From: a virus
Taxonomy: Duplodnaviria > Heunggongvirae > Uroviricota > Caudoviricetes
DNA: 15,529 nucleotides
Reading direction: 5' to 3' (one strand)
Virus record (IMG/VR): IMGVR_UViG_2681813263_000002
A program made the position numbers and the translations under genes. Below, piece after piece: positions 1 through 14,496 of the stretch (within the stretch, counting starts at the first letter, position 1; each line of letters starts with the position of its first letter). The notes under the pieces are model-generated. The model made no database searches, was not told the origin of the DNA, and was given only the letters and a program-made list of their open reading frames with translations.

Positions 1-170
1 TGGTAGTGTCCGCTATTGCCAGTACACCTCAATGCGCCGTATCGTCGCTGTATTCCCTCATTAACAGAGACCGCAGCCCGACAGGGAGACTCCTCTGCGC
101 GAGTGTGCGGGGATAATCAAAAACGATACACACCGGGGTTTACCGCGTTAACGGAGCGCGGNNNNNNNNN

Positions 171-787
171 NNNNNNNNNNNNNNNNNNNNNNNNNNNNNN
201 NNNNNNNNNNNNNNNNNNNNNNNNNNNNNNNNNNNNNNNNNNNNNNNNNNNNNNNNNNNNNNNNNNNNNNNNNNNNNNNNNNNNNNNNNNNNNNNNNNNN
301 NNNNNNNNNNNNNNNNNNNNNNNNNNNNNNNNNNNNNNNNNNNNNNNNNNNNNNNNNNNNNNNNNNNNNNNNNNNNNNNNNNNNNNNNNNNNNNNNNNNN
401 NNNNNNNNNNNNNNNNNNNNNNNNNNNNNNNNNNNNNNNNNNNNNNNNNNNNNNNNNNNNNNNNNNNNNNNNNNNNNNNNNNNNNNNNNNNNNNNNNNNN
501 NNNNNNNNNNNNNNNNNNNNNNNNNNNNNNNNNNNNNNNNNNNNNNNNNNNNNNNNNNNNNNNNNNNNNNNNNNNNNNNNNNNNNNNNNNNNNNNNNNNN
601 NNNNNNNNNNNNNNNNNNNNNNNNNNNNNNNNNNNNNNNNNNNNNNNNNNNNNNNNNNNNNNNNNNNNNNNNNNNNNNNNNNNNNNNNNNNNNNNNNNNN
701 NNNNNNNNNNNNNNNNNNNNNNNNNNNNNNNNNNNNNNNNNNNNNNNNNNNNNNNNNNNNNNNNNNNNNNNNNNNNNNNNNNNNNNN
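171..787. other. Run of N (617 nt): assembly gap or masked region, content unknown
   Basis: Uninterrupted n characters; ORFs 16..801 (+) and 140..853 (-) read through it only as X residues. Confidence 0.95.
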
Positions 788-1095
788 AATCATTTGGTTA
801 GGAAAGCGGATGTTGCGGGTTGTTGTTCTGCGGGTTCTGTTCTTCGTTGACATGAGGTTGCNNNNNNNNNNNNNNNNNNNNNNNNNNNNNNNNNNNNNNN
901 NNNNNNNNNNNNNAGTGTCGCTGATTTGTATTGTCTGAAGTTGTTTTTACGTTAAGTTGATGCAGATCAATTAATACGATACCTGCGTCATAATTGATTA
1001 TTTGACGTGGTTTGATGGCGTAGATGCACGTTGTGACATGTAGATGATAATTATTATCATTTTGCGGGTCCTTTCCGGCGATCCGACAGGTTACG
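788..1095 (+). other. Lambda right-end-like sequence immediately upstream of cosN, including the cosQ-containing segment; interrupted by a 51-nt N-run at 863-913
   Basis: Sequence (aatcatttggttaggaaagcggatgttgcggg ... gggtcctttccggcgatccgacaggttacg) matches my recollection of the last ~250 bp of the lambda genome with a few substitutions, and ends exactly at the cosN 12-mer. Confidence 0.7.
863..913. other. Run of N (51 nt): gap or masked segment within the right-end-like region
   Basis: Uninterrupted n characters. By recollection lambda has only about 9 nt at this position, so the true length here is uncertain. Confidence 0.9.
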
Positions 1096-1107
1096 GGGCG
1101 GAAGGCG
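1096..1107 (+). other. cosN: cosN-like cohesive-end site (terminase nicking site), variant 12-mer GGGCGGAAGGCG
   Basis: Sits between ...ccgacaggttacg and cgcgggttttcgctatttatg..., the conserved lambda flanks of cosN. Lambda's 12-mer is GGGCGGCGACCT; here the left half is identical and 5 of the 6 right-half bases differ. Confidence 0.7.
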
Positions 1108-1147
1108 CGCGGGTTTTCGCTATTTATGACAATTTTCCGGTTTAAGG

Positions 1148-1260
1148 CGTTTCCGTTCTTCTTCGCCGTAACCTAATGTTTTTATTTAAAACACCCCCTG
1201 AAAAGAAAGGAAACGACAGGTGCTGAAAACGGGCTTTTTGGCCTCTGTCGTTTCCTTTCT
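1148..1260 (+). promoter_or_regulatory. cosB: cosB: terminase small-subunit binding elements R3 (about 1148-1163), A/T-rich IHF-site-like I1 (about 1170-1200), R2 inverted (about 1205-1219), R1 (about 1245-1260)
   Basis: Three copies of the cgtttcc(t/g)ttct motif: cgtttccgttcttctt; gaaaggaaacgacag, which is the reverse complement ctgtcgtttcctttc; and ctgtcgtttcctttct. This is the R3-I1-R2-R1 layout between cosN and the nu1 start, as in lambda. Confidence 0.7.
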
Positions 1261-1284
1261 CTGTTTTTGTCCGTGGAATGAACA

Positions 1285-1804
1285 ATGGAAGTCAACAAAA
1301 AGCAGCTGGCTGACATTTTCGGTGCGAGTATCCGTACCATTCAGAACTGGCAGGAACAGGGAATGCCCGTTCTGCGAGGCGGTGGCAAGGGTAATGAGGT
1401 GCTTTATGACTCTGCCGCCGTTATAAGATGGTATGCCGAAAGGGATGCTGAAATTGAGAACGAAAAGCTGCGCCGGGAAGTTGAAGAACTGCGGCAGGCC
1501 AGCGAGACAGATCTCCAGCCAGGGACTATTGAGTACGAACGCCATCGACTTACGCGTGCGCAGGCCGACGCACAGGAGCTGAAAAATGCCAGAGACTCCG
1601 CTGAAGTGGTGGAAACCGCATTCTGTACTTTCGTGCTGTCGCGGATCGCAGGTGAAATTGCCAGTATTCTCGACGGGATCCCCCTGTCGGTGCAGCGGCG
1701 TTTTCCGGAACTGGAAAACCGACATGTTGATTTCCTGAAACGGGATATCATCAAAGCCATGAACAAAGCAGCCGCGCTGGATGAACTGATACCGGGGTTG
1801 CTGA

Positions 1805-1830
<26 letters not shown>
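1285..1830 (+). CDS. nu1: Terminase small subunit gpNu1 (N-terminal winged-HTH DNA-binding domain)
   Basis: 181-aa ORF MEVNKKQLADIFGASIRTIQNWQEQGMPVLRGGGKGNEV... recognised as lambda Nu1. ATG start about 180 nt downstream of cosN; 26-nt overlap with A as in lambda. Confidence 0.95.
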
Positions 1831-5829
<3,999 letters not shown>

Positions 5830-5849
<20 letters not shown>

Positions 5850-7130
5850 TCTCCCGCATATTGCCAGCATGGCTTTTAATGAGCCGCTGATGCTTGAACC
5901 CGCCTATGCGCGGGTTTTCTTTTGTGCGCTTGCAGGCCAGCTTGGGATCAGCTGCCTGACGGATGCAGTATCCGGCGACAGCCTGACTGCCGGAGAGGCA
6001 CCCGCGGCGCTGGCGTTATCCGGTGATGATGACGGACCACGACAGGCCCGCAGTTATCAGGTAATGAACGGCATCGCCGTGCTGCCGGTGTCCGGCACGC
6101 TGGTCAGCCGTACTCGGGGATGACCGGTTACAACGGCATTATCGCCCGTCTGCAACAGGCTGCCAGCGACCCGATGGTGGACGGCATTCTGCTCGATATG
6201 GACACACCGGGCGGAATGGTGGCGGGAGCATTTGACTGCGCTGACATCATCGCCCGTGTGCGTGACATAAAGCCGGTATGGGCGCTGGCCAATGACATGA
6301 ACTGCAGCGCAGGTCAGCTGCTTGCCAGTGCCGCCTCCCGGCGTCTGGTCACGCAGACCGCCCGGACAGGCTCCATCGGCGTCATGATGGCTCACAGTAA
6401 TTACGGCGCTGCACTGGAGAAACAGGGCGTGGAAATCACGCTGATTTACAGCGGCAGCCATAAGGTGGATGGCAACCCCTACAGCCATCTACCGGATGAT
6501 GTCCGGGAAACATTGCAGTCCCGGATGGATGCAACCCGCCGGATGTTTGCACAGAAGGTGTCGGCATATACCGGCCTGTCCGTGCAGGCTGTGCTGGATA
6601 CCGAGGCTGCAGTGTACAGCGGTCAGGAGGCCATTGATGCCGGACTGGCTGATGAACTTGTTAACAGTACCGATGCGATCACCGTCATGCGTGATGCACT
6701 GGATGCACGTAAATCCCGTCTCTCAGGAGGGCGAATGACCAAAGAGACTCAATCAACAACTGTTTCAGCCACTGCTTCGCAGGCTGACGTTACTGGCGTG
6801 GTGCAAGCGACGGAGGGCGAGAACGCCAGCGCGGCGCAGCCGGACGTGAACGCGCAGATCACCGCAGCGGTTGCGGCAGAAAACAGTCGCATTATGGGGA
6901 TCCTCAACTGTGAGGAGGCTCACGGACGCGAAGAACAGGCACGCGTGCTGGCCGAAACCCCCGGTATGACCGTGGAAACGGCCCGCCGTATTCTGGCCGC
7001 AGCACCACAGAGTGCACAGACGCGCAGTGACACTGCGCTGGATCGTCTGATGCAGGGGGCACCGGCACCGCTGGCTGCAGGTAACCCGGCATCTGATGCC
7101 GTTAACGATTTGCTGAACACACCAGTGTAA
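5830..7130 (+). pseudogene. C: Gene C (capsid assembly protease / minor capsid protein, S49 SppA-like family) split by a frameshift near 6118-6123: 5' part 5830-6123 (97 aa), 3' part in another frame 6120-7130
   Basis: GTG at 5830 gives MTAELRNLPHIASMAFNEPLMLEPAYARVFF..., ending ...LVSRTRG then TGA at 6121-6123. The next ORF starts at ATG 6120 (MTGYNGIIARLQQAASDPMVDGILLDMDTPGG...) in a different frame with no spacer or Shine-Dalgarno sequence. In lambda these form one continuous protein (...SRTRALQPYSGMTGYNG... by recollection, 439 aa); here 97 + 336 = 433 aa, consistent with loss of about 19 nt. Confidence 0.6.
6525..7130 (+). CDS. nu3: Scaffolding protein gpNu3, translated in frame from an internal start within the 3' part of C
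   Basis: Internal ATG at 6525 (MDATRRMFAQKVSAYTGLSV...) in the same frame and with the same stop as the C 3' region; 201 aa, matching lambda Nu3 length and position. Confidence 0.8.
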   Translation: MDATRRMFAQKVSAYTGLSVQAVLDTEAAVYSGQEAIDAGLADELVNSTDAITVMRDALDARKSRLSGGRMTKETQSTTVSATASQADVTGVVQATEGENASAAQPDVNAQITAAVAAENSRIMGILNCEEAHGREEQARVLAETPGMTVETARRILAAAPQSAQTRSDTALDRLMQGAPAPLAAGNPASDAVNDLLNTPV

Positions 7131-7139
7131 GGGATGTTT

Positions 7140-7472
7140 ATGACGAGCAAAGAAACCTTTACCCATTACCAGCCGCTGGGCAATAGTGACCCGGCTCATA
7201 CCGCAACCGCGCCCGGCGGATTGAGTGCGAAAGCGCCTGCAATGACCCCGCTGATGCTGGACACCTCCACCCGTAAGCTGGTTGCGTGGGATGGCACCAC
7301 CGACGGTGCTGCCGTTGGCATTCTTGCGGTTGCTGCTGACCAGACCAGCACCACACTGACGTTCTACAAGTCCGGCACGTTCCGTTATGAGGATGTGCTC
7401 TGGCCGGAGGCTGCCAGCGACGAGACGAAAAAACGGACCGCGTTTGCCGGAACGGCAATCAGCATCGTTTAA
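7140..7472 (+). CDS. D: Head decoration protein gpD
   Basis: [43 protein letters not shown]... recognised as lambda gpD, 110 aa. ATG 7140 preferred over the upstream in-frame ATG 7134 because the AAGGGA Shine-Dalgarno-like sequence is then at proper spacing. Confidence 0.95.
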
Positions 7473-7489
7473 CTTTACCCTTCATCACT

Positions 7490-7514
7490 AAAGGCCGCCT
7501 GTGCGGCTTTTTTT
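7490..7514 (+). terminator. Intrinsic-terminator-like hairpin between D and E (GC-rich stem, CTGT loop, T-run)
   Basis: aaaggccgc-ctgt-gcggctttt: about 9 bp of stem including one G-T wobble, followed by ttttttt further downstream. Sits 18 nt after the D stop. Confidence 0.4.
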
Positions 7515-7527
7515 ACGGGATTTTTTT

Positions 7528-8553
7528 ATGTCGATGTACACAACCGCCCAGCTGCTGGCGGCAAATGAGCAGAAATTTAAGTTTGATCCGCTGTTTCTGC
7601 GTCTCTTTTTCCGTGAGAGCTATCCCTTCACTACGGAGAAAGTCTATCTCTCACAAATTCCGGGACTGGTAAACATGGCGCTGTACGTTTCGCCGATTGT
7701 TTCCGGTGAGGTTATCCGTTCCCGTGGCGGCTCCACCTCTGAATTTACGCCGGGATATGTCAAACCCAAGCATGAGGTGAATCCGCAGATGACCCTGCGT
7801 CGCCTGCCGGATGAAGATCCGCAGAATCTGGCGGACCCGGCTTACCGCCGCCGTCGCATCATCATGCAGAACATGCGTGACGAAGAGCTGGCCATTGCTC
7901 AGGTCGAAGAGATGCAGGCAGTTTCTGCCGTGCTCAAGGGCAAATACACCATGACCGGTGAAGCCTTCGATCCGGTTGAGGTGGATATGGGCCGCAGTGC
8001 GGCGAACAACATCACACAGTCCGGCGTCACGGAGTGGAGCAAGCGTGACAAGTCCACGTATGACCCGACCGACGATATCGAAGCCTACGCGCTGAACGCC
8101 AGCGGTGTGGTGAATATCATCGTGTTTGACCCGAAAGGCTGGGCGCTGTTCCGTTCCTTCAAAGCCGTCAAGGAGAAGCTGGATACCCGTCGCGGCTCTC
8201 ATTCCGAGCTGGAGACAGCGGTAAAAGACCTGGGCAAAGCGGTGTCCTATAAGGGAATGTATGGCGATGTGGCCATCGTCGTGTATTCCGGACAGTACGT
8301 GGAAAACGGCGTCAAAAAGAACTTCCTGCCGGACAACACGATGGTGCTGGGGAACACTCAGGCTCGCGGTCTGCGCACCTATGGCTGCATTCAGGATGCG
8401 GACGCACAGCGCGAAGGCATTAACGCCTCTGCCCGTTACCCGAAAAACTGGGTGACCACCGGCGATCCGGCGCGTGAGTTCACCATGATTCAGTCAGCAC
8501 CGCTGATGCTGCTGGCTGATCCTGATGAGTTCGTGTCCGTTCAACTGGCGTAA
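7528..8553 (+). CDS. E: Major capsid protein gpE
   Basis: MSMYTTAQLLAANEQKFKFDPLFLRLFFRESYPFTTEKVYLSQIPGLVNMALYV... recognised as lambda gpE, 341 aa. The ORF-track start at 7501 is an upstream in-frame extension, not the real start. Confidence 0.95.
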   Translation: MSMYTTAQLLAANEQKFKFDPLFLRLFFRESYPFTTEKVYLSQIPGLVNMALYVSPIVSGEVIRSRGGSTSEFTPGYVKPKHEVNPQMTLRRLPDEDPQNLADPAYRRRRIIMQNMRDEELAIAQVEEMQAVSAVLKGKYTMTGEAFDPVEVDMGRSAANNITQSGVTEWSKRDKSTYDPTDDIEAYALNASGVVNIIVFDPKGWALFRSFKAVKEKLDTRRGSHSELETAVKDLGKAVSYKGMYGDVAIVVYSGQYVENGVKKNFLPDNTMVLGNTQARGLRTYGCIQDADAQREGINASARYPKNWVTTGDPAREFTMIQSAPLMLLADPDEFVSVQLA

Positions 8554-8555
8554 TC

Positions 8556-8577
8556 ATGGCCCTTCGGGGCCATTTTC
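8556..8577 (+). terminator. Hairpin directly after the E stop: perfect 7-bp stem with TTCG tetraloop followed by TTTT
   Basis: atggccc-ttcg-gggccat then ttttctctct, beginning 3 nt after the E stop codon. Confidence 0.4.
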
Positions 8578-8594
8578 TCTCTGTGGAGGAGTTC

Positions 8595-8993
8595 ATGACG
8601 AAAGATGAACTGATTGCCCGTCTTCAGGAGCTGGGTGAGCAATTGAACCGCGATGTCAGTTTGACGGGAACGAAAGAAGAACTGGCGCTTCGTGTGGCAG
8701 AGCTGGAAGAAGAGCTTGATGACACGGATGAAACTGCCGGTCAGGACACCCCTCTCAGCCGGGAAAATGTGCTGACCGGGCATGAAAATGAGGTGGTATC
8801 AGCGCAGCCGGATACCGTGATTCAGGATACGGCTGAACTGGTCACGGTCGTGGCACTGGTGACGCTGCATACTGATGCACTTCACGCCACGCGGGATAAA
8901 CCTGTGGCATTTGTGCTGCCGGGAACGGCGTTTCGTGTCTCTGCCGGTGTGGCAGCCGAAATGACAGAGCGCGGCCTGGCCAGAATGCAATAA
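8595..8993 (+). CDS. FI: DNA-packaging / head assembly protein gpFI
   Basis: MTKDELIARLQELGEQLNRDVSLTGTKEELALRVAELEEELDDTDETAGQ... recognised as lambda gpFI, 132 aa. GGAGGA Shine-Dalgarno sequence 5 nt upstream of ATG 8595; the ORF-track start at 8556 is an upstream extension. Confidence 0.9.
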   Translation: MTKDELIARLQELGEQLNRDVSLTGTKEELALRVAELEEELDDTDETAGQDTPLSRENVLTGHENEVVSAQPDTVIQDTAELVTVVALVTLHTDALHATRDKPVAFVLPGTAFRVSAGVAAEMTERGLARMQ

Positions 8994-9004
8994 CGGGAGG
9001 CGCT

Positions 9005-9358
9005 GTGGCTGATTTCGATAACCTGTTCGATGCTGCCATTGCCCGCGCCGATGAAACGATACGCGGGTACATGGGAACGTCAGCCACCATGACATCCGGT
9101 GAGCAGTCAGGTGCGGTGATACGTGGTGTTTTTGATGACCCTGAAAATATCAGCTATGCCGGACAGGGCGTGCGCGTTGAAGGCTCCAGCCCGTCCCTGT
9201 TTGTCCGGACTGATGAGGTGCGGCAGCTGCGGCGTGGAGACACGCTGACCATCGGTGAGGAAAATTTCTGGGTAGATCGGGTTTCGCCGGATGATGGCGG
9301 AAGTTGTCATCTCTGGCTTGGACGGGGCGTACCGCCTGCCGTTAACCGTCGCCGCTGA
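9005..9358 (+). CDS. FII: Head completion / head-tail connector protein gpFII
   Basis: GTG-initiated 117-aa ORF MADFDNLFDAAIARADETIRGYMGTSATMTSGEQSGAVIRGVFDDPEN... recognised as lambda gpFII. Confidence 0.93.
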   Translation: MADFDNLFDAAIARADETIRGYMGTSATMTSGEQSGAVIRGVFDDPENISYAGQGVRVEGSSPSLFVRTDEVRQLRRGDTLTIGEENFWVDRVSPDDGGSCHLWLGRGVPPAVNRRR

Positions 9359-9369
9359 AAGGGGGATGT

Positions 9370-9948
9370 ATGGCCATAAAAGGTCTTGAGCAGGCCGTTG
9401 AAAACCTCAGCCGTATCAGCAAAACGGCGGTGCCCGGTGCCGCCGCAATGGCCATTAACCGCGTTGCTTCATCCGCGATATCGCAGTCTGCGTCACAGGT
9501 TGCCCGTGAGACAAAGGTACGCCGGAAACTGGTAAAGGAAAGGGCCAGGCTGAAAAGGGCCACGGTCAAAAATCCGCAGGCCAGAATCAAAGTTAACCGG
9601 GGGGATTTGCCCGTAATCAAGCTGGGTAATGCGCGGGTTGTCCTGTCCCGCCGCAGGCGTCATAAAAAGGGGCAGCGTTCATCCCTGAAAGGTGGCGGCA
9701 GCGTGCTTGTGGTGGGTAACCGTCGTATTCCCGGCGCGTTTATTCAGCAACTGAAAAACGGCCGGTGGCATGTTATGCAGCGTGTGGCCGGGAAAAACCG
9801 TTACCCCATTGATGTGGTGAAAATCCCGATGGCGGTGCCGCTGACCACGGCGTTTAAACAGAATATTGAACGGATACGGCGTGAACGTCTTCCGAAAGAG
9901 CTGGGCTATGCGCTGCAGCATCAACTGAGAATGGTAATAAAGCGATGA
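9370..9948 (+). CDS. Z: Tail completion protein gpZ
   Basis: 192-aa ORF MAIKGLEQAVENLSRISKTAVPGAAAMAINRVASSAISQSASQVARETK... recognised as lambda gpZ; ATGA overlap with U. Confidence 0.93.
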   Translation: MAIKGLEQAVENLSRISKTAVPGAAAMAINRVASSAISQSASQVARETKVRRKLVKERARLKRATVKNPQARIKVNRGDLPVIKLGNARVVLSRRRRHKKGQRSSLKGGGSVLVVGNRRIPGAFIQQLKNGRWHVMQRVAGKNRYPIDVVKIPMAVPLTTAFKQNIERIRRERLPKELGYALQHQLRMVIKR

Positions 9949-10340
9949 AACATACTGAACTCCGTGCAGCCGTACTGGATGCACTGGAGAAGCATGACAC
10001 CGGGGCGACGCTTTTTGATGGTCGCCCCGCTGTTTTTGATGAGGAAGATTTTCCGGCAATTGCCGTTTATCTCACCGGCGCTGAATACACGGGCGAAGAG
10101 CTGGACAGCGATACCTGGCAGGCGGAGCTGCATATTGAAGTTTTCCTGCCTGCTCAGGTGCCGGATTCAGAGCTGGATTCGTGGATGGAGTCCCGGATTT
10201 ATCCGGTGATGAGCGATATCCCGGCACTGTCAGATTTGATCACCAGTATGGTGGCCAGCGGCTATGACTACCGGCGCGACGATGATGCGGGCCTGTGGAG
10301 TTCAGCCGATCTGACTTATGTCATTATCTATGAAATGTGA
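9945..10340 (+). CDS. U: Tail terminator protein gpU
   Basis: 131-aa [55 protein letters not shown]... recognised as lambda gpU. Confidence 0.93.
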
Positions 10341-10347
10341 GGACGCT

Positions 10348-11088
10348 ATGCCTGTACCAAATCCTACAATGCCGGTGAAAGGTGCCGGGACCACCCTGTG
10401 GGTTTATAAGGGGAGCGGTGACCCTTATGCGAACCCGCTTTCAGACGTTGACTGGTCGCGTCTGGCAAAAGTTAAAGACCTGACGCCCGGCGAACTGACC
10501 GCTGAGTCCTATGACGACAGCTATCTCGATGATGAAGATGCAGACTGGACTGCGACCGGGCAGGGGCAGAAATCTGCCGGAGATACCAGCTTCACGCTGG
10601 CGTGGATGCCCGGAGAGCAGGGGCAGCAGGCGCTGCTGGCGTGGTTTAATGAAGGTGATACCCGTGCCTATAAAATCCGCTTCCCGAACGGCACGGTCGA
10701 TGTGTTCCGTGGCTGGGTCAGCAGTATCGGTAAGGCGGTGACGGCGAAGGAGGTGATTACCCGCACGGTGAAGGTCACCAATGTGGGACGTCCGTCGATG
10801 GCAGAAGATCGCAGCACGGTGACGGCGACGACCGGCATGACGGTGACACCCGCCAGTGCTTCCGTAGTGAAAGGGCAGAGCACCACGCTGACCGTGGCAT
10901 TCCAGCCGGATGGCGCAACCGACAAGAGCTTCCGTGCGGTGTCTGCGGATAAAACAAAAGCCACCGTGTCGGTCAGTGGTATGACCATCACCGTGAAAGG
11001 TGTTGCTGCAGGCAAGGTCAACATTCCGGTCGTATCTGGTAATGGTGAGTTTGCTGCGGTTGCAGAAATCAACGTCACCGCCAGTTAA
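10348..11088 (+). CDS. V: Major tail tube protein gpV (N-terminal tube domain plus C-terminal Ig-like domain)
   Basis: [45 protein letters not shown]... recognised as lambda gpV, 246 aa from ATG 10348. The Thr/Val-rich C-terminal roughly 90 aa are typical of a Big_2 Ig-like domain. Confidence 0.95.
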
Positions 11089-11103
11089 TCCGGAGAGTCA
11101 GCG

Positions 11104-11526
11104 ATGTTCCTGAAAACCGAATCATTTGAACATAACGGTGTGACCGTCACGCTTTCTGAACTGTCAGCCCTGCAGCGTATTGAGCATCTCGACCTGATGA
11201 AACGGCAGGCAGAACAGGCGGAGTCAGACAGCAACCGGAAGTTTACTGTGGAAGACGCCATCAGAACCGGCGCTTTTGTGGTTGCGATGTCCCTGTGGCA
11301 TAACCATCCGAAGAAGACGCAGATGCCGTCCATGAATGAAGCCGTTAAACAGATTGAGCAGGAAGTGCTTACCACCTGGCCCACAGAGGCAATTTCTCAT
11401 GCTGAAAACGTGGTGTACCGGCTGTCCGGTATGTATGAGTTTGTGGTGAATGATGCTCCTGAACAGGCAGAGGACGCCGGGCCTGCAGAGCCTGTTTCTG
11501 CGGGAAAGTGTTCGACGGTGAGCTGA
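11104..11526 (+). CDS. G: Tail assembly chaperone gpG
   Basis: 140-aa ORF MFLKTESFEHNGVTVTLSELSALQRIEHLDLMKRQAEQAESDSNRKFTVEDAIRTGAF... recognised as lambda gpG. Confidence 0.93.
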   Translation: MFLKTESFEHNGVTVTLSELSALQRIEHLDLMKRQAEQAESDSNRKFTVEDAIRTGAFVVAMSLWHNHPKKTQMPSMNEAVKQIEQEVLTTWPTEAISHAENVVYRLSGMYEFVVNDAPEQAEDAGPAEPVSAGKCSTVS

Positions 11527-11942
11527 GTTTTGCCCTGAAACTGGCGCGTGAGATGGGGCGACCCGACTGGCGCGCCATGCTTGCCGGGATGTCATCCACG
11601 GAGTATGCCGACTGGCACCGCTTTTACAGTACCCATTATTTTCATGATGTTCTGCTGGATATGCACTTTTCCGGGCTGACGTACACCGTGCTCAGCCTGT
11701 TTTTCAGCGATCCGGAGATGCATCCGCTGGATTTCAGTCTGCTGAACCGGCGCGAGGCTGACGAAGAGCCTGAAGATGATGTGCTGATGCAGAAAGCGGC
11801 AGGGCTTGCCGGAGGTGTCCGCTTTGGCCCGGACGGGAATGAAGTTATCCCCGCTTCCCCGGATGTGGCGGACATGACGGAGGATGACGTAATGCTGATG
11901 ACAGTATCAGAAGGGATCGCAGGAGGAGTCCGGTATGGCTGA
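11104..11942 (+). CDS. G-T: Tail assembly chaperone fusion gpGT, made by programmed -1 ribosomal frameshift at G GGA AAG (11502-11508) from the G frame into the T frame
   Basis: The slippery heptamer GGGAAAG lies in the zero frame as G GGA AAG near the 3' end of G. The -1 frame from there stays open to 11942 and encodes ...FDGELSFALKLAREMGRPDWRAMLAGMSSTEYADWHRFY..., recognised as lambda gpT sequence, with no independent start or RBS. Confidence 0.85.
11502..11508 (+). other. Slippery heptanucleotide GGGAAAG (recoding signal for the G-T -1 frameshift)
   Basis: Read directly: cgGGGAAAGtg, with the codon phase of G giving G GGA AAG. Confidence 0.85.
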
Positions 11943-14496
11943 ACCGGTAGGCGATCTGGTCGTTGATTTGAGTCTGGATGCGGCCAGATTTGACGAGCAG
12001 ATGGCCAGAGTCAGGCGTCATTTTTCCGGTACGGAAAGTGATGCGAAAAAAACAGCGGCAGTCGTTGAACAGTCGCTGAGCCGACAGGCGCTGGCTGCAC
12101 AGAAAGCGGGGATTTCCGTCGGGCAGTATAAAGCCGCCATGCGTATGCTGCCTGCACAGTTCACCGACGTGGCCACGCAGCTTGCAGGGGGGCAGAATCC
12201 CTGGCTGATCCTGCTGCAACAGGGTGGTCAGGTTAAGGACTCCTTCGGCGGGATGATCCCCATGTTCAGGGGGCTTGCCGGCGCGATCACCCTGCCGATG
12301 GTGGGGGCCACCTCGCTGGCGGTGGCGACCGGTGCGCTGGCGTATGCCTGGTATCAGGGCAACTCAACCCTGTCCGATTTCAACAAAACGCTGGTCCTTT
12401 CCGGTAATCAGGCGGGACTGACGGCAGATCGTATGCTGGTCCTGTCCAGAGCCGGGCAGGCGGCAGGGCTGACGTTTAACCAGACCAGCGAGTCACTCAG
12501 CGCACTGGTTAAGGCGGGGGTAAGCGGTGAGGCTCAGATTGCGTCCATCAGCCAGAGTGTGGCGCGTTTCTCCTCTGCATCCGGCGTGGAGGTGGACAAG
12601 GTCGCTGAAGCCTTCGGGAAGCTGACCACAGACCCGACGTCGGGGCTGACGGCGATGGCACGCCAGTTCCATAACGTGACGGCGGAGCAGATTGCGTATG
12701 TTGCTCAGTTGCAGCGTTCCGGCGATGAAGCCGGGGCATTGCAGGCGGCGAACGAGGCCGCAACGAAAGGGTTTGATGACCAGACCCGCCGCCTGAAAGA
12801 GAACATGGGCACGCTGGAGACCTGGGCAGACAGGACTGCACGTGCATTCAAATCCATGTGGGATGCGGTGCTGGATATTGGTCGTCCTGATACCGCGCAG
12901 GAGATGCTGATTAAGGCAGAGGCTGCGTTTAAGAAAGCAGACGACATCTGGAATCTGCGCAAGGATGATTATTTCGTTAACGATGAAGCACGGGCGCGTT
13001 ACTGGGATGATCGTGAAAAAAAACGCCTGGAGCGGGATGCAGCCCAAAAGAGGGTAGATCAACAGCGTCAACAGGACAAAAATGCGCAGCAGCAGAGCGA
13101 TACCGAAGCGTCACGGCTGAAATATACCGAAGAGGCGCAGAAGGCTTACGAACGGCTGCAGACGCCGCTGGAGAAATATACCGCCCGTCAGGAAGAACTG
13201 AACAAGGCACTGAAAGACGGAAAAATCCTGCAGGCAGATTACAACACGCTGATGGCGGCGGCGAAAAAGGATTATGAAGCGACGCTGAAAAAGCCGAAAC
13301 AGTCCGGCGTGAAGGTGTATGCGGGCGATCGTCAGGAAGACAGTGCTCATGCGGCCCTGCTGACGCTTCAGGCAGAACTCCGGACGCTGGAGAAGCATGC
13401 CGGAGCGAATGAGAAAATCAGCCAGCAGCGCCGGGATTTGTGGAAGGCAGAAAGTCAGTTCGCGGTACTGGAGGAGGCGGCACAACGTCGCCAGCTGTCC
13501 GCACAGGAGAAATCCCTGCTGGCGCATAAAGACGAGACGCTGGAGTACAAACGCCAGCTGGCTGCACTTGGTGACAAGGTTACGTATCAGGAGCACCTGA
13601 ATGCGCTGGCGCAGCAGGCGGATAAATTCGCACAGCAGCAACGGGCAAAACGGGCAGCCATTGATGCGAAAAACCGGGGGCTGACTGACCGGCAGGCAGC
13701 GCGGGAAGCCACGGAACAGCGCCTGAAGGAACAGTATGGCGATAATCCTCTGGCGCTGAATAACGTCATGTCAGAGCAGAAAAAGACCTGGGCGGCTGAA
13801 GACCAGCTTCGCGGGAGCTGGATGGCAGGCCTGAAGTCCGGCTGGAGTGAGTGGGAAGAGAGCGCCACGGACAGTATGTCACAGGTTAAAAGTGCAGCCA
13901 CGCAGACCTTTGATGGTATTGCACAGAATATGGCGGCGATGCTGACCGGCAGTGAACAGAACTGGCGCAGCTTCACCCGCTCCGTGCTGTCCATGATGAC
14001 AGAAATTCTGCTTAAGCAGGCAATGGTGGGGATTGTCGGGAGTATCGGCAGCGCCATTGGCGGGGCTGTTGGTGGCGGCGCATCCGCGTCAGGTGGTACA
14101 GCCATTCAGGCCGCTGCGGCGAAATTCCATTTTGCAACCGGGGGATTTACGGGAACCGGCGGCAAATATGAGCCAGCGGGGATTGTTCACCGTGGTGAAT
14201 TTGTCTTCACGAAGGAGGCAACCAGCCGGATTGGCGTGGGGAATCTCTACCGGCTGATGCGCGGCTATGCGGAAGGTGGTTATGTGGGCGGTGCCGGAAG
14301 TCCGGCGCAGATGCGGCGGGCTGAAGGCATTAATTTTAATCAGAACAATCACGTGGTGATTCAGAACGACGGTACGAATGGTCTGCCAGGTCCACAGATG
14401 ATGAAGGCCGTGTATGACATGGCCCGCAAGGGTGCCCGTGATGAAATTCAGACACAGATGCGTGATGGTGGCCTGTTCTCCGGAGGTGGACGATGA
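11935..14496 (+). CDS. H: Tail tape measure protein gpH
   Basis: 853-aa ORF, the lambda gpH length, with long charged/coiled-coil-like segments and a Gly/Ala-rich C-terminal region; ATGA overlap with M and 8-nt overlap with the T frame. Position after G/T is the conserved chaperone-tape measure arrangement. Confidence 0.95.
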   Translation: MAEPVGDLVVDLSLDAARFDEQMARVRRHFSGTESDAKKTAAVVEQSLSRQALAAQKAGISVGQYKAAMRMLPAQFTDVATQLAGGQNPWLILLQQGGQVKDSFGGMIPMFRGLAGAITLPMVGATSLAVATGALAYAWYQGNSTLSDFNKTLVLSGNQAGLTADRMLVLSRAGQAAGLTFNQTSESLSALVKAGVSGEAQIASISQSVARFSSASGVEVDKVAEAFGKLTTDPTSGLTAMARQFHNVTAEQIAYVAQLQRSGDEAGALQAANEAATKGFDDQTRRLKENMGTLETWADRTARAFKSMWDAVLDIGRPDTAQEMLIKAEAAFKKADDIWNLRKDDYFVNDEARARYWDDREKKRLERDAAQKRVDQQRQQDKNAQQQSDTEASRLKYTEEAQKAYERLQTPLEKYTARQEELNKALKDGKILQADYNTLMAAAKKDYEATLKKPKQSGVKVYAGDRQEDSAHAALLTLQAELRTLEKHAGANEKISQQRRDLWKAESQFAVLEEAAQRRQLSAQEKSLLAHKDETLEYKRQLAALGDKVTYQEHLNALAQQADKFAQQQRAKRAAIDAKNRGLTDRQAAREATEQRLKEQYGDNPLALNNVMSEQKKTWAAEDQLRGSWMAGLKSGWSEWEESATDSMSQVKSAATQTFDGIAQNMAAMLTGSEQNWRSFTRSVLSMMTEILLKQAMVGIVGSIGSAIGGAVGGGASASGGTAIQAAAAKFHFATGGFTGTGGKYEPAGIVHRGEFVFTKEATSRIGVGNLYRLMRGYAEGGYVGGAGSPAQMRRAEGINFNQNNHVVIQNDGTNGLPGPQMMKAVYDMARKGARDEIQTQMRDGGLFSGGGR

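Follow-up and report, generated by a model that had tools for sequence, protein, structure and literature searches.

The cos region and terminase genes of the window

The window analyzed here, the whole 15,529-nucleotide stretch of IMG/VR virus record IMGVR_UViG_2681813263_000002 (Duplodnaviria; Heunggongvirae; Uroviricota; Caudoviricetes), contains a cos region of the lambda family and, to its right, the terminase genes Nu1 and A. The features and their coordinates are collected in Table 1. The cosQ heptamer, which we take to be lambda bp 48473-48479, is shared with lambda together with its 30-bp distance to the nick, the cosN left half GGGCGG, the flanking CG pairs, and the R3, R2 and R1 boxes with their spacing. 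The cosB of the window is of the complex kind, with an inverted R2, a cosN-to-R3 spacing identical to that of lambda and an I1 site predicted by homology; the order R3-I1-R2-R1 has been described previously, as has the presence of one identical 16-bp sequence in both R2 and R1 (PMC9026076). No mismatch to lambda was found from bp 36 to bp 70, a stretch that includes R3, whose extent and role as the TerS site anchoring the TerL protomer that nicks the bottom strand are taken from the same source (PMC9026076). In the R3-R2 interval the window departs from lambda at five commonly polymorphic sites, bp 71, 73, 78, 97 and 102. The three substitutions in Nu1 all lie outside the recognition helix (residues 17-24) and the wing (residues 31-39), both of which are unchanged (residue numbering from PMC9026076).

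Table 1. Coordinates of the cos region and terminase genes within the window
Feature	Position	Strand	Remarks
cosQ heptamer GGGTCCT, packaging-termination signal	1066..1072	+	begins 30 bp before the top-strand nick, the spacing seen in lambda and N15; invariant in alignments
cosN, 12-bp cohesive-end sequence plus the CG flanking each nick	1094..1109	.	16-bp definition from PMC9026076 and PMC4669245
Conserved CG dinucleotides flanking the two predicted nicks	1094-1095 and 1108-1109		present
Predicted top-strand nick	1095/1096	top	homology and conserved spacing
Predicted bottom-strand nick	1107/1108	bottom	homology and conserved spacing
cosN left half GGGCGG	1096..1101	+	same as lambda
cosN right half AAGGCG, variant allele	1102..1107	+	lambda CGACCT; from alignments
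cosB R3 AGGCGTTTCCGTTCTT, critical TerS binding site	1145..1160	+	equals lambda bp 50-65
R3-R2 interval, IHF site I1 in lambda	1161..1203	.	by homology; predicted I1 only
cosB R2, inverted 16-bp R box CTGTCGTTTCCTTTCT	1204..1219	-	exact
cosB R1, 16-bp R box CTGTCGTTTCCTTTCT	1245..1260	+	exact
Nu1 (TerS), 181 aa, intact	1285..1830	+	178/181 identical to lambda (K48R, A75T, L132I)
A (TerL, gpA), 641 aa, intact	1805..3730	+	638/641 identical to lambda (T151S, D185E, T466I)

Positions 1090-1112 read gttacg GGGCGGAAGGCG cgcgg, the 12-mer itself occupying 1096-1107. In a multiple alignment the same columns are GGGCGGCGACCT in lambda, DE3, 2H10, Turner and the Stx1 (Stx1a) phages, and also in phage 21 and several PhiR phages; the annotated 12-base sticky end of phi80 is GGGCGGCGACCT as well. 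The window agrees with lambda at 7 of the 12 bases with no indel. Bases 1-6 are all the same, bases 7, 8, 9, 10 and 12 are changed, and C11 is the sole right-half base retained, so that the mismatches are confined to bp 7-12 while the left half, the flanking CG pairs and cosQ are unaltered. The initial annotation had stated that the left six bases are those of lambda and that five of the six right-half bases differ. The alignments with lambda and 21 and the sticky end of phi80 agree with this: the 12-mer given there for lambda is the correct one, and it is absent from the window.

The surrounding DNA is close to lambda. Identity between window 1108-4616 and lambda 13-3522 is 98.35%, interrupted by a single 1-nt indel, and upstream of cosN 9 mismatches were counted over 182 nt. 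At a background divergence of 1.8%, the probability of at least 5 mismatches in a given 6-nt interval is approximately 1e-8, and approximately 4e-5 such clusters would be expected over the ~3,700 intervals compared; the cluster is therefore not due to chance, and the earlier description of a tight cluster within near-lambda DNA is confirmed.

An IMG/VR contig (L016) is 100% identical to the window over 914-4616 and 4879-12088, and the exact 12-mer with its flanks was found again in hundreds of independent records. The right-half change of cosN is real, and is neither a sequencing or assembly error nor a private lesion. We did consider that the 12-mer might have been created by sequencing, assembly or scaffolding, since the window has three scaffold-like runs of N (162-787; 863-913, 51 N; and 4617-4878, 262 N), the third of which is flanked by an exact 56-nt duplication. 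However, the cos block at 914-4616 is uninterrupted and identical to an IMG/VR contig, and the 12-mer and its flanks occur exactly in many finished genomes, which leaves an artifact with a practically negligible probability.

The N runs have the appearance of masked sequence or of joins or gaps in a scaffold. The portal gene B contains the 262-N run, whose duplicated flanks (4561-4616 and 4879-4934) both correspond to lambda 3467-3522. Contig L016 has no extra sequence at this site, and in place of the 51-N run it has only ~9 nt. A 639-aa portal "B" ORF (3930-5849), with an apparent insertion of ~300 nt relative to lambda, was therefore discarded as an artifact of the N run and its duplicated flanks. 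Positions 1-161 of the window may not be contiguous with the prophage.

Distribution and spectrum of cosN right-half alleles

In order to determine how widespread the variant is, complete E. coli genomes were searched with a 46-nt query designed so that any 28-nt megablast seed was forced across the variant bases. Of the 5,426 genomes, 158 gave a match to the variant query, at 169 places in total, 16 of which are on plasmids; the lambda-type query matched 8,401 places in 4,481 genomes, 20 of them on plasmids. Among cos sites of complete E. coli genomes with either AAGGCG or the lambda 12-mer, AAGGCG thus accounts for ~2%, and it is ~40-fold enriched on plasmids relative to the lambda allele. 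The variant is carried as well by 78 IMG/VR contigs and by 31 metagenome contigs from gut and food, and a single additional species representative, Escherichia sp. E1V33, has it too. Among these 78 IMG/VR and 31 metagenome contigs, none had a terminus at the predicted nick.

The exact 12-mer with its flanks was found in phage PhiR46_1, in Ravinvirus YDC107_1, in a 46.9-kb E. coli plasmid and in a chromosomal prophage of APEC, and E. coli plasmids of ~46 kb carry the allele. PhiR46_1 and YDC107_1 are N15-like telomere phage-plasmids, and plasmid pAH01-1 also carries AAGGCG. PhiR46_1 has ParA, ParB and a telR site, and its Nu1, A, W, B, C, D and E through J are all at full lambda length; its status as a propagating phage is taken from its GenBank record, which names ECOR13 as laboratory host. 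A search of the literature for papers on the PhiR phage series or PhiR46_1 returned none. Both PhiR46_1 and YDC107_1, the latter classified as a Ravinvirus, have a lambda-type cosB, Nu1 and A, unlike N15, which has a simple cosB, and unlike the "Monarch" group described by Feiss.

To survey the alleles that occupy the right half, IMG/VR was scanned for cosQ, the lambda spacing and CG-GGGCGG followed by a free right half. The lambda allele was excluded position-wise at bp 7-9 only, and the counts therefore cover right halves that depart from CGA at one or more of these three positions. AAGGCG was the commonest non-lambda right half among the alleles scanned, with 52 contigs, and its 12-mer was invariant on 13 different cosQ-cosN spacer haplotypes. 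CGTCCG, the N15 type, and CAGCGT, which matches the published differences of Gifsy-1, were each found in 46 contigs. These were followed by CGTCCT (12 contigs), AGACCT and CAGACT (6 each), CAGACG (5), GAGCGG and CAGCGG (3 each) and TGACCT (2). AAGGCG and GAGCGG are jointly the most divergent from lambda in this spectrum. Alleles seen in single contigs include CAACCT, CAGGCT, CAGGCG and AAGGCT, which form a single-step bridge from the lambda right half to AAGGCG. An origin by a small inversion of a lambda segment had been considered, as GCGACCTC in reverse complement agrees with GAAGGCGC at 6 of 8 positions, but it became unconvincing when these stepwise alleles were found and was dropped. A scan of IMG/VR with all 12 bases left free gave lambda-type sites in ~117 of 120 matches and one left-half change. 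That change, the sole one of its kind among the ~120 unbiased matches, is GGGCGACGACCT (G6A) in IMG/VR contig L091. A rare single-step right-half allele, GGGCGGAGACCT (C7A), is present in PhiR70_1.

AAGGCG is old and widespread, and its conservation on many backgrounds is unlike the behavior of a decaying site. Two of the other alleles correspond to named phages and allow a closer comparison. The cosN of N15 and phiD326, GGGCGGCGTCCG, which is also that of HK225, is a natural variant of the right half only, and like the window it has C at bp 11 and G at bp 12. N15 differs from lambda at 2 positions, whereas AAGGCG differs from lambda at 5 and from N15 at 4 (bp 7-10). The two also differ in the rest of the site, as N15 has a simple cosB with one R box and its own TerS specificity, whereas the window has the full lambda cosB and a lambda-type Nu1; the window allele is itself carried by the N15-like elements described above. 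The Gifsy-1 type, about as common in IMG/VR as AAGGCG, is likewise changed in the right half only and has A8 and G9 in common with the window, but it keeps C7, C10 and T12 of lambda and changes C11.

A full-text literature search for the 12-mer in both orientations returned only unrelated plant and Streptomyces papers. We thus found no description of the AAGGCG allele in the searchable literature, while variation of the right half as such is already known; with 5 changes, AAGGCG exceeds the described variants, which have 2-3.

Two minor observations came from these searches. The 56,122-bp record IMGVR_UViG_3300045988_113976 has two AAGGCG cos sites on opposite reported strands, and could represent two elements or an assembly chimera. 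Matches to the cos pattern were also found in records of Streptomyces, Raphidiopsis, Aeromicrobium, Archangium and Alicyclobacillus. All but the Streptomyces record, four of the five, have the lambda 12-mer; Raphidiopsis, Aeromicrobium and Alicyclobacillus have the exact cos flanks of lambda and Archangium differs in the spacer. These four are most likely contamination with lambda or a cosmid vector. The Streptomyces match, which has unrelated flanks, looks like a chance match.

Terminase sequences beside the two alleles

We compared segments of 2.85 kb, from cos to the end of gene A, for 14 variant-linked and 61 lambda-type sites (MAFFT, fast setting). Only the five cosN bases were perfectly associated with the allele. 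Three sites in the non-coding cosB spacers, at window positions 1166, 1192 and 1232, showed strong but imperfect linkage to AAGGCG, with frequency differences of 0.70-0.87. They lie 70-136 bp to the right of cosN; no site on the left side was linked, and the maximum difference in gene A was 0.63. This pattern suggests that AAGGCG moves as a short cosN-cosB haplotype.

A larger sample of TerL, with 57 distinct variant-linked and 65 lambda-type segments, contained no fixed amino acid difference between the two allele classes, and 7 TerL protein sequences were found unchanged beside both alleles. Genes intact at lambda coordinates were A in 47 of 57 and Nu1 in 51 of 57 variant-linked segments, and A in 40 of 65 and Nu1 in 50 of 65 lambda-type segments. 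None of the three gpA substitutions of the window, T151S, D185E and T466I, is specific to the cosN allele. As an indirect test, these comparisons indicate that TerL probably does not discriminate AAGGCG from the lambda cosN.

They also bear on the idea that the terminase has evolved together with the allele and that its nuclease now recognizes a different sequence, such that the TerL of lambda and that of the window would not cut each other's sites. This idea drew on a first, small sample, in which T466I of gpA was present in 12 of 13 variant-linked sequences and in 9 of 48 others. In the larger sample the signal was gone, with 27 variant-linked TerL proteins having T at residue 466 and 17 having I, and T466I was rejected as a marker of AAGGCG along with the idea built upon it. 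The absence of any class-fixed residue, the 7 proteins identical in both classes and a window TerL that differs from that of lambda at just 3 of 641 residues all argue against a changed nuclease, as does the published finding that lambda and N15-hybrid terminases are without cosN specificity (PMC4669245, Table 4). We regard it as extremely unlikely.

AAGGCG offers a natural test of the asymmetry model of cosN, with 5 of 6 right-half base pairs changed and a TerL that is the same as beside the lambda cosN. The occurrence of identical TerL proteins beside AAGGCG and the lambda cosN supports the view that the TerS-R3 anchor, and not the sequence at the cut, determines where the bottom strand is nicked.

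Predicted cleavage and end pairing of the AAGGCG allele

The reading that we consider highly probable is that the window 12-mer works as a cosN of the lambda family and that AAGGCG is one of the right-half alleles that occur naturally at this cohesive-end site. From homology, the conserved spacing and the lambda and N15 literature we infer that cleavage is likely to occur, that the nicks would fall at the lambda positions and that the ends would be incompatible with those of the other type. TerS (Nu1) would bind the unchanged cosB (R3-I1-R2-R1), and the R3-bound TerS would place one TerL (gpA) protomer for the bottom-strand nick, which would fall between bp 12 and 13 (1107/1108). A second TerL protomer would read the left half GGGCGG and the flanking CG and nick the top strand at 1095/1096; a top-strand nick by a second TerL is also part of the model summarized by Murialdo and Feiss 2022 (PMC9026076). 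Base pairs 7-12 would be free to change without loss of cleavage, because the bottom-strand cut would be set by the TerS-R3 anchor and not by the reading of bp 7-12.

Published work on lambda-like phages is consistent with such a scheme. Mutations at bp 7-12 have minimal phenotypes, whereas the symmetric changes in the left half are severe, and this functional asymmetry of cosN depends on nearness to cosB (Feiss et al. 2015, PMC4669245). Lambda-like phages commonly differ in the right half, at bp 9 and 12 in N15 and phiD326 and at bp 8, 9 and 11 in Gifsy-1, while the flanking CG pairs and the 7-bp cosQ are highly conserved (PMC4669245). In experiments the N15 cosN proved as good a substrate for lambda TerL as the lambda site, and lambda terminase gave equal yields with cosN-lambda and cosN-N15 (PMC4669245).

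The products of cleavage would be 12-nt 5' overhangs, GGGCGGAAGGCG at the left end and CGCCTTCCGCCC at the right end. Using DNA nearest-neighbor parameters, the predicted pairing energy of the window ends with each other is -18.6 kcal/mol, compared to -19.0 kcal/mol for the lambda ends, so that the window ends should anneal mutually as stably as those of lambda and cyclization would be normal. A chromosome with one AAGGCG end and one lambda- or N15-type end would pair via the 6-bp GGGCGG core only, at a predicted energy of about -9.5 kcal/mol. For a lambda end with an N15 end the prediction is about -15.2 kcal/mol, and this 2-bp mismatch is tolerated experimentally with a 4-fold loss of yield (PMC4669245). 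The likely outcome of the AAGGCG change is normal cleavage giving ends that are different from those of lambda, equally stable, and poor at pairing with them. In the initial annotation the change was read as either a different cohesive-end specificity or an impairment of cos cleavage. The first holds insofar as the cohesive-end sequence is different, but not as a different specificity of the enzyme, given the 7 shared TerL proteins and the lack of a fixed residue; impaired cleavage is not supported.

The allele may nevertheless have some quantitative effect on nicking. The twofold symmetry of cosN extends over 8 of 16 positions in the window (the flanking CG pairs, G2:C11 and C4:G9), as opposed to 10 of 16 in each of lambda, N15 and the Gifsy-1 type, since AAGGCG loses two of the three internal symmetric pairs of lambda, G3:C10 and G6:C7. 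This lower symmetry might bring a modest loss of nicking, and five simultaneous changes go past both the natural 2-3-bp variants and the point mutations tested so far.

A further reading is that a functional AAGGCG allele is also selectively maintained, as a cohesive-end compatibility group that would restrict recombination or productive chimeric packaging among lambda-family elements resident in one cell, such as phage-plasmids and integrated prophages. The predicted cross-annealing with lambda or N15 ends has about half the energy of self-annealing, a mismatch of just 2 bp already carries a 4-fold cost in yield (PMC4669245), a few discrete alleles dominate with no cloud of variants, and the plasmid enrichment (16 of 169 versus 20 of 8,401 places) would fit with such a role. 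On the other hand, every cos of a concatemer inherits the same cosN mutation and the ends stay matched, so drift alone can fix alleles, and the conclusion of Feiss et al. is that selection does not act on bp 7-12. Shared ancestry explains the plasmid enrichment and the N15-like carriers equally well and can account for the discrete alleles, and we view selective maintenance as unlikely. Somewhat less likely again is a more specific version, in which the right-half alleles of lambda (CGACCT), N15 (CGTCCG), Gifsy-1 (CAGCGT) and the window would all act as compatibility groups. As all of them would be cut by the same TerL, packaging from one allele to another would give non-cyclizing ends, and AAGGCG would be maintained because it insulates its lineage from unproductive chimeric packaging or recombination with the abundant co-resident lambda-type prophages. 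No other of these alleles is less compatible with lambda and N15 ends than AAGGCG, at the predicted -9.5 kcal/mol versus about -19 kcal/mol for matched ends, and AAGGCG also shows strong enrichment on N15-like phage-plasmids.

The opposite possibility is that the five substitutions inactivate or severely weaken cosN as part of the decay of a packaging-defective prophage. Five of the six right-half bases are changed and two symmetric pairs are gone, the same prophage has a frameshifting 19-nt deletion in gene C, and cleavage at AAGGCG is something that we infer. Yet the allele is shared by 158 complete E. coli genomes and by over 100 contigs besides, it is invariant on 13 flank haplotypes, and it occurs in complete phage and phage-plasmid genomes. 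The linked A and Nu1 genes are intact in a higher fraction (47/57 and 51/57) than at lambda-type cos sites in the same sample, and bp 7-12 are tolerant of change in the literature (PMC4669245). A decayed cos would be recognized as a private or sporadic lesion, absent from intact phages and accompanied by degraded terminase genes, and AAGGCG has none of these properties. We consider decay of cosN to be very unlikely, and retain a functional natural allele as the explanation. For annotation, finding a 12-mer unlike that of lambda in a cos that otherwise resembles lambda should not count as evidence of prophage decay, and cohesive-end prediction for lambda-family prophages and phage-plasmids should allow several right-half alleles.

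The initial annotation had also reported a frameshift in C and joined it with the cosN change as fitting a packaging-defective prophage. The frameshift itself exists. A deletion of 19 nt at window position 6105, corresponding to lambda 4693-4711 (CAGCCGGACGCGGGCGCTG) and flanked by the 6-nt direct repeat CAGCCG, disrupts the reading frame of the S49 protease/scaffold gene C (ORFs 5695-6123 and 6120-7130), with Nu3 in frame downstream. Since C is frameshifted, the window prophage cannot itself demonstrate the function of its cosN. The joint interpretation did not hold, as the allele is widespread and the deletion is not: its junction was found only in the window and contig L016, and the best-matching complete E. 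coli genomes are all undeleted. The C lesion is recent and private, in contrast to the cosN allele, and hence independent of it. The prophage may well be defective in head maturation because of C, and not because of cosN.
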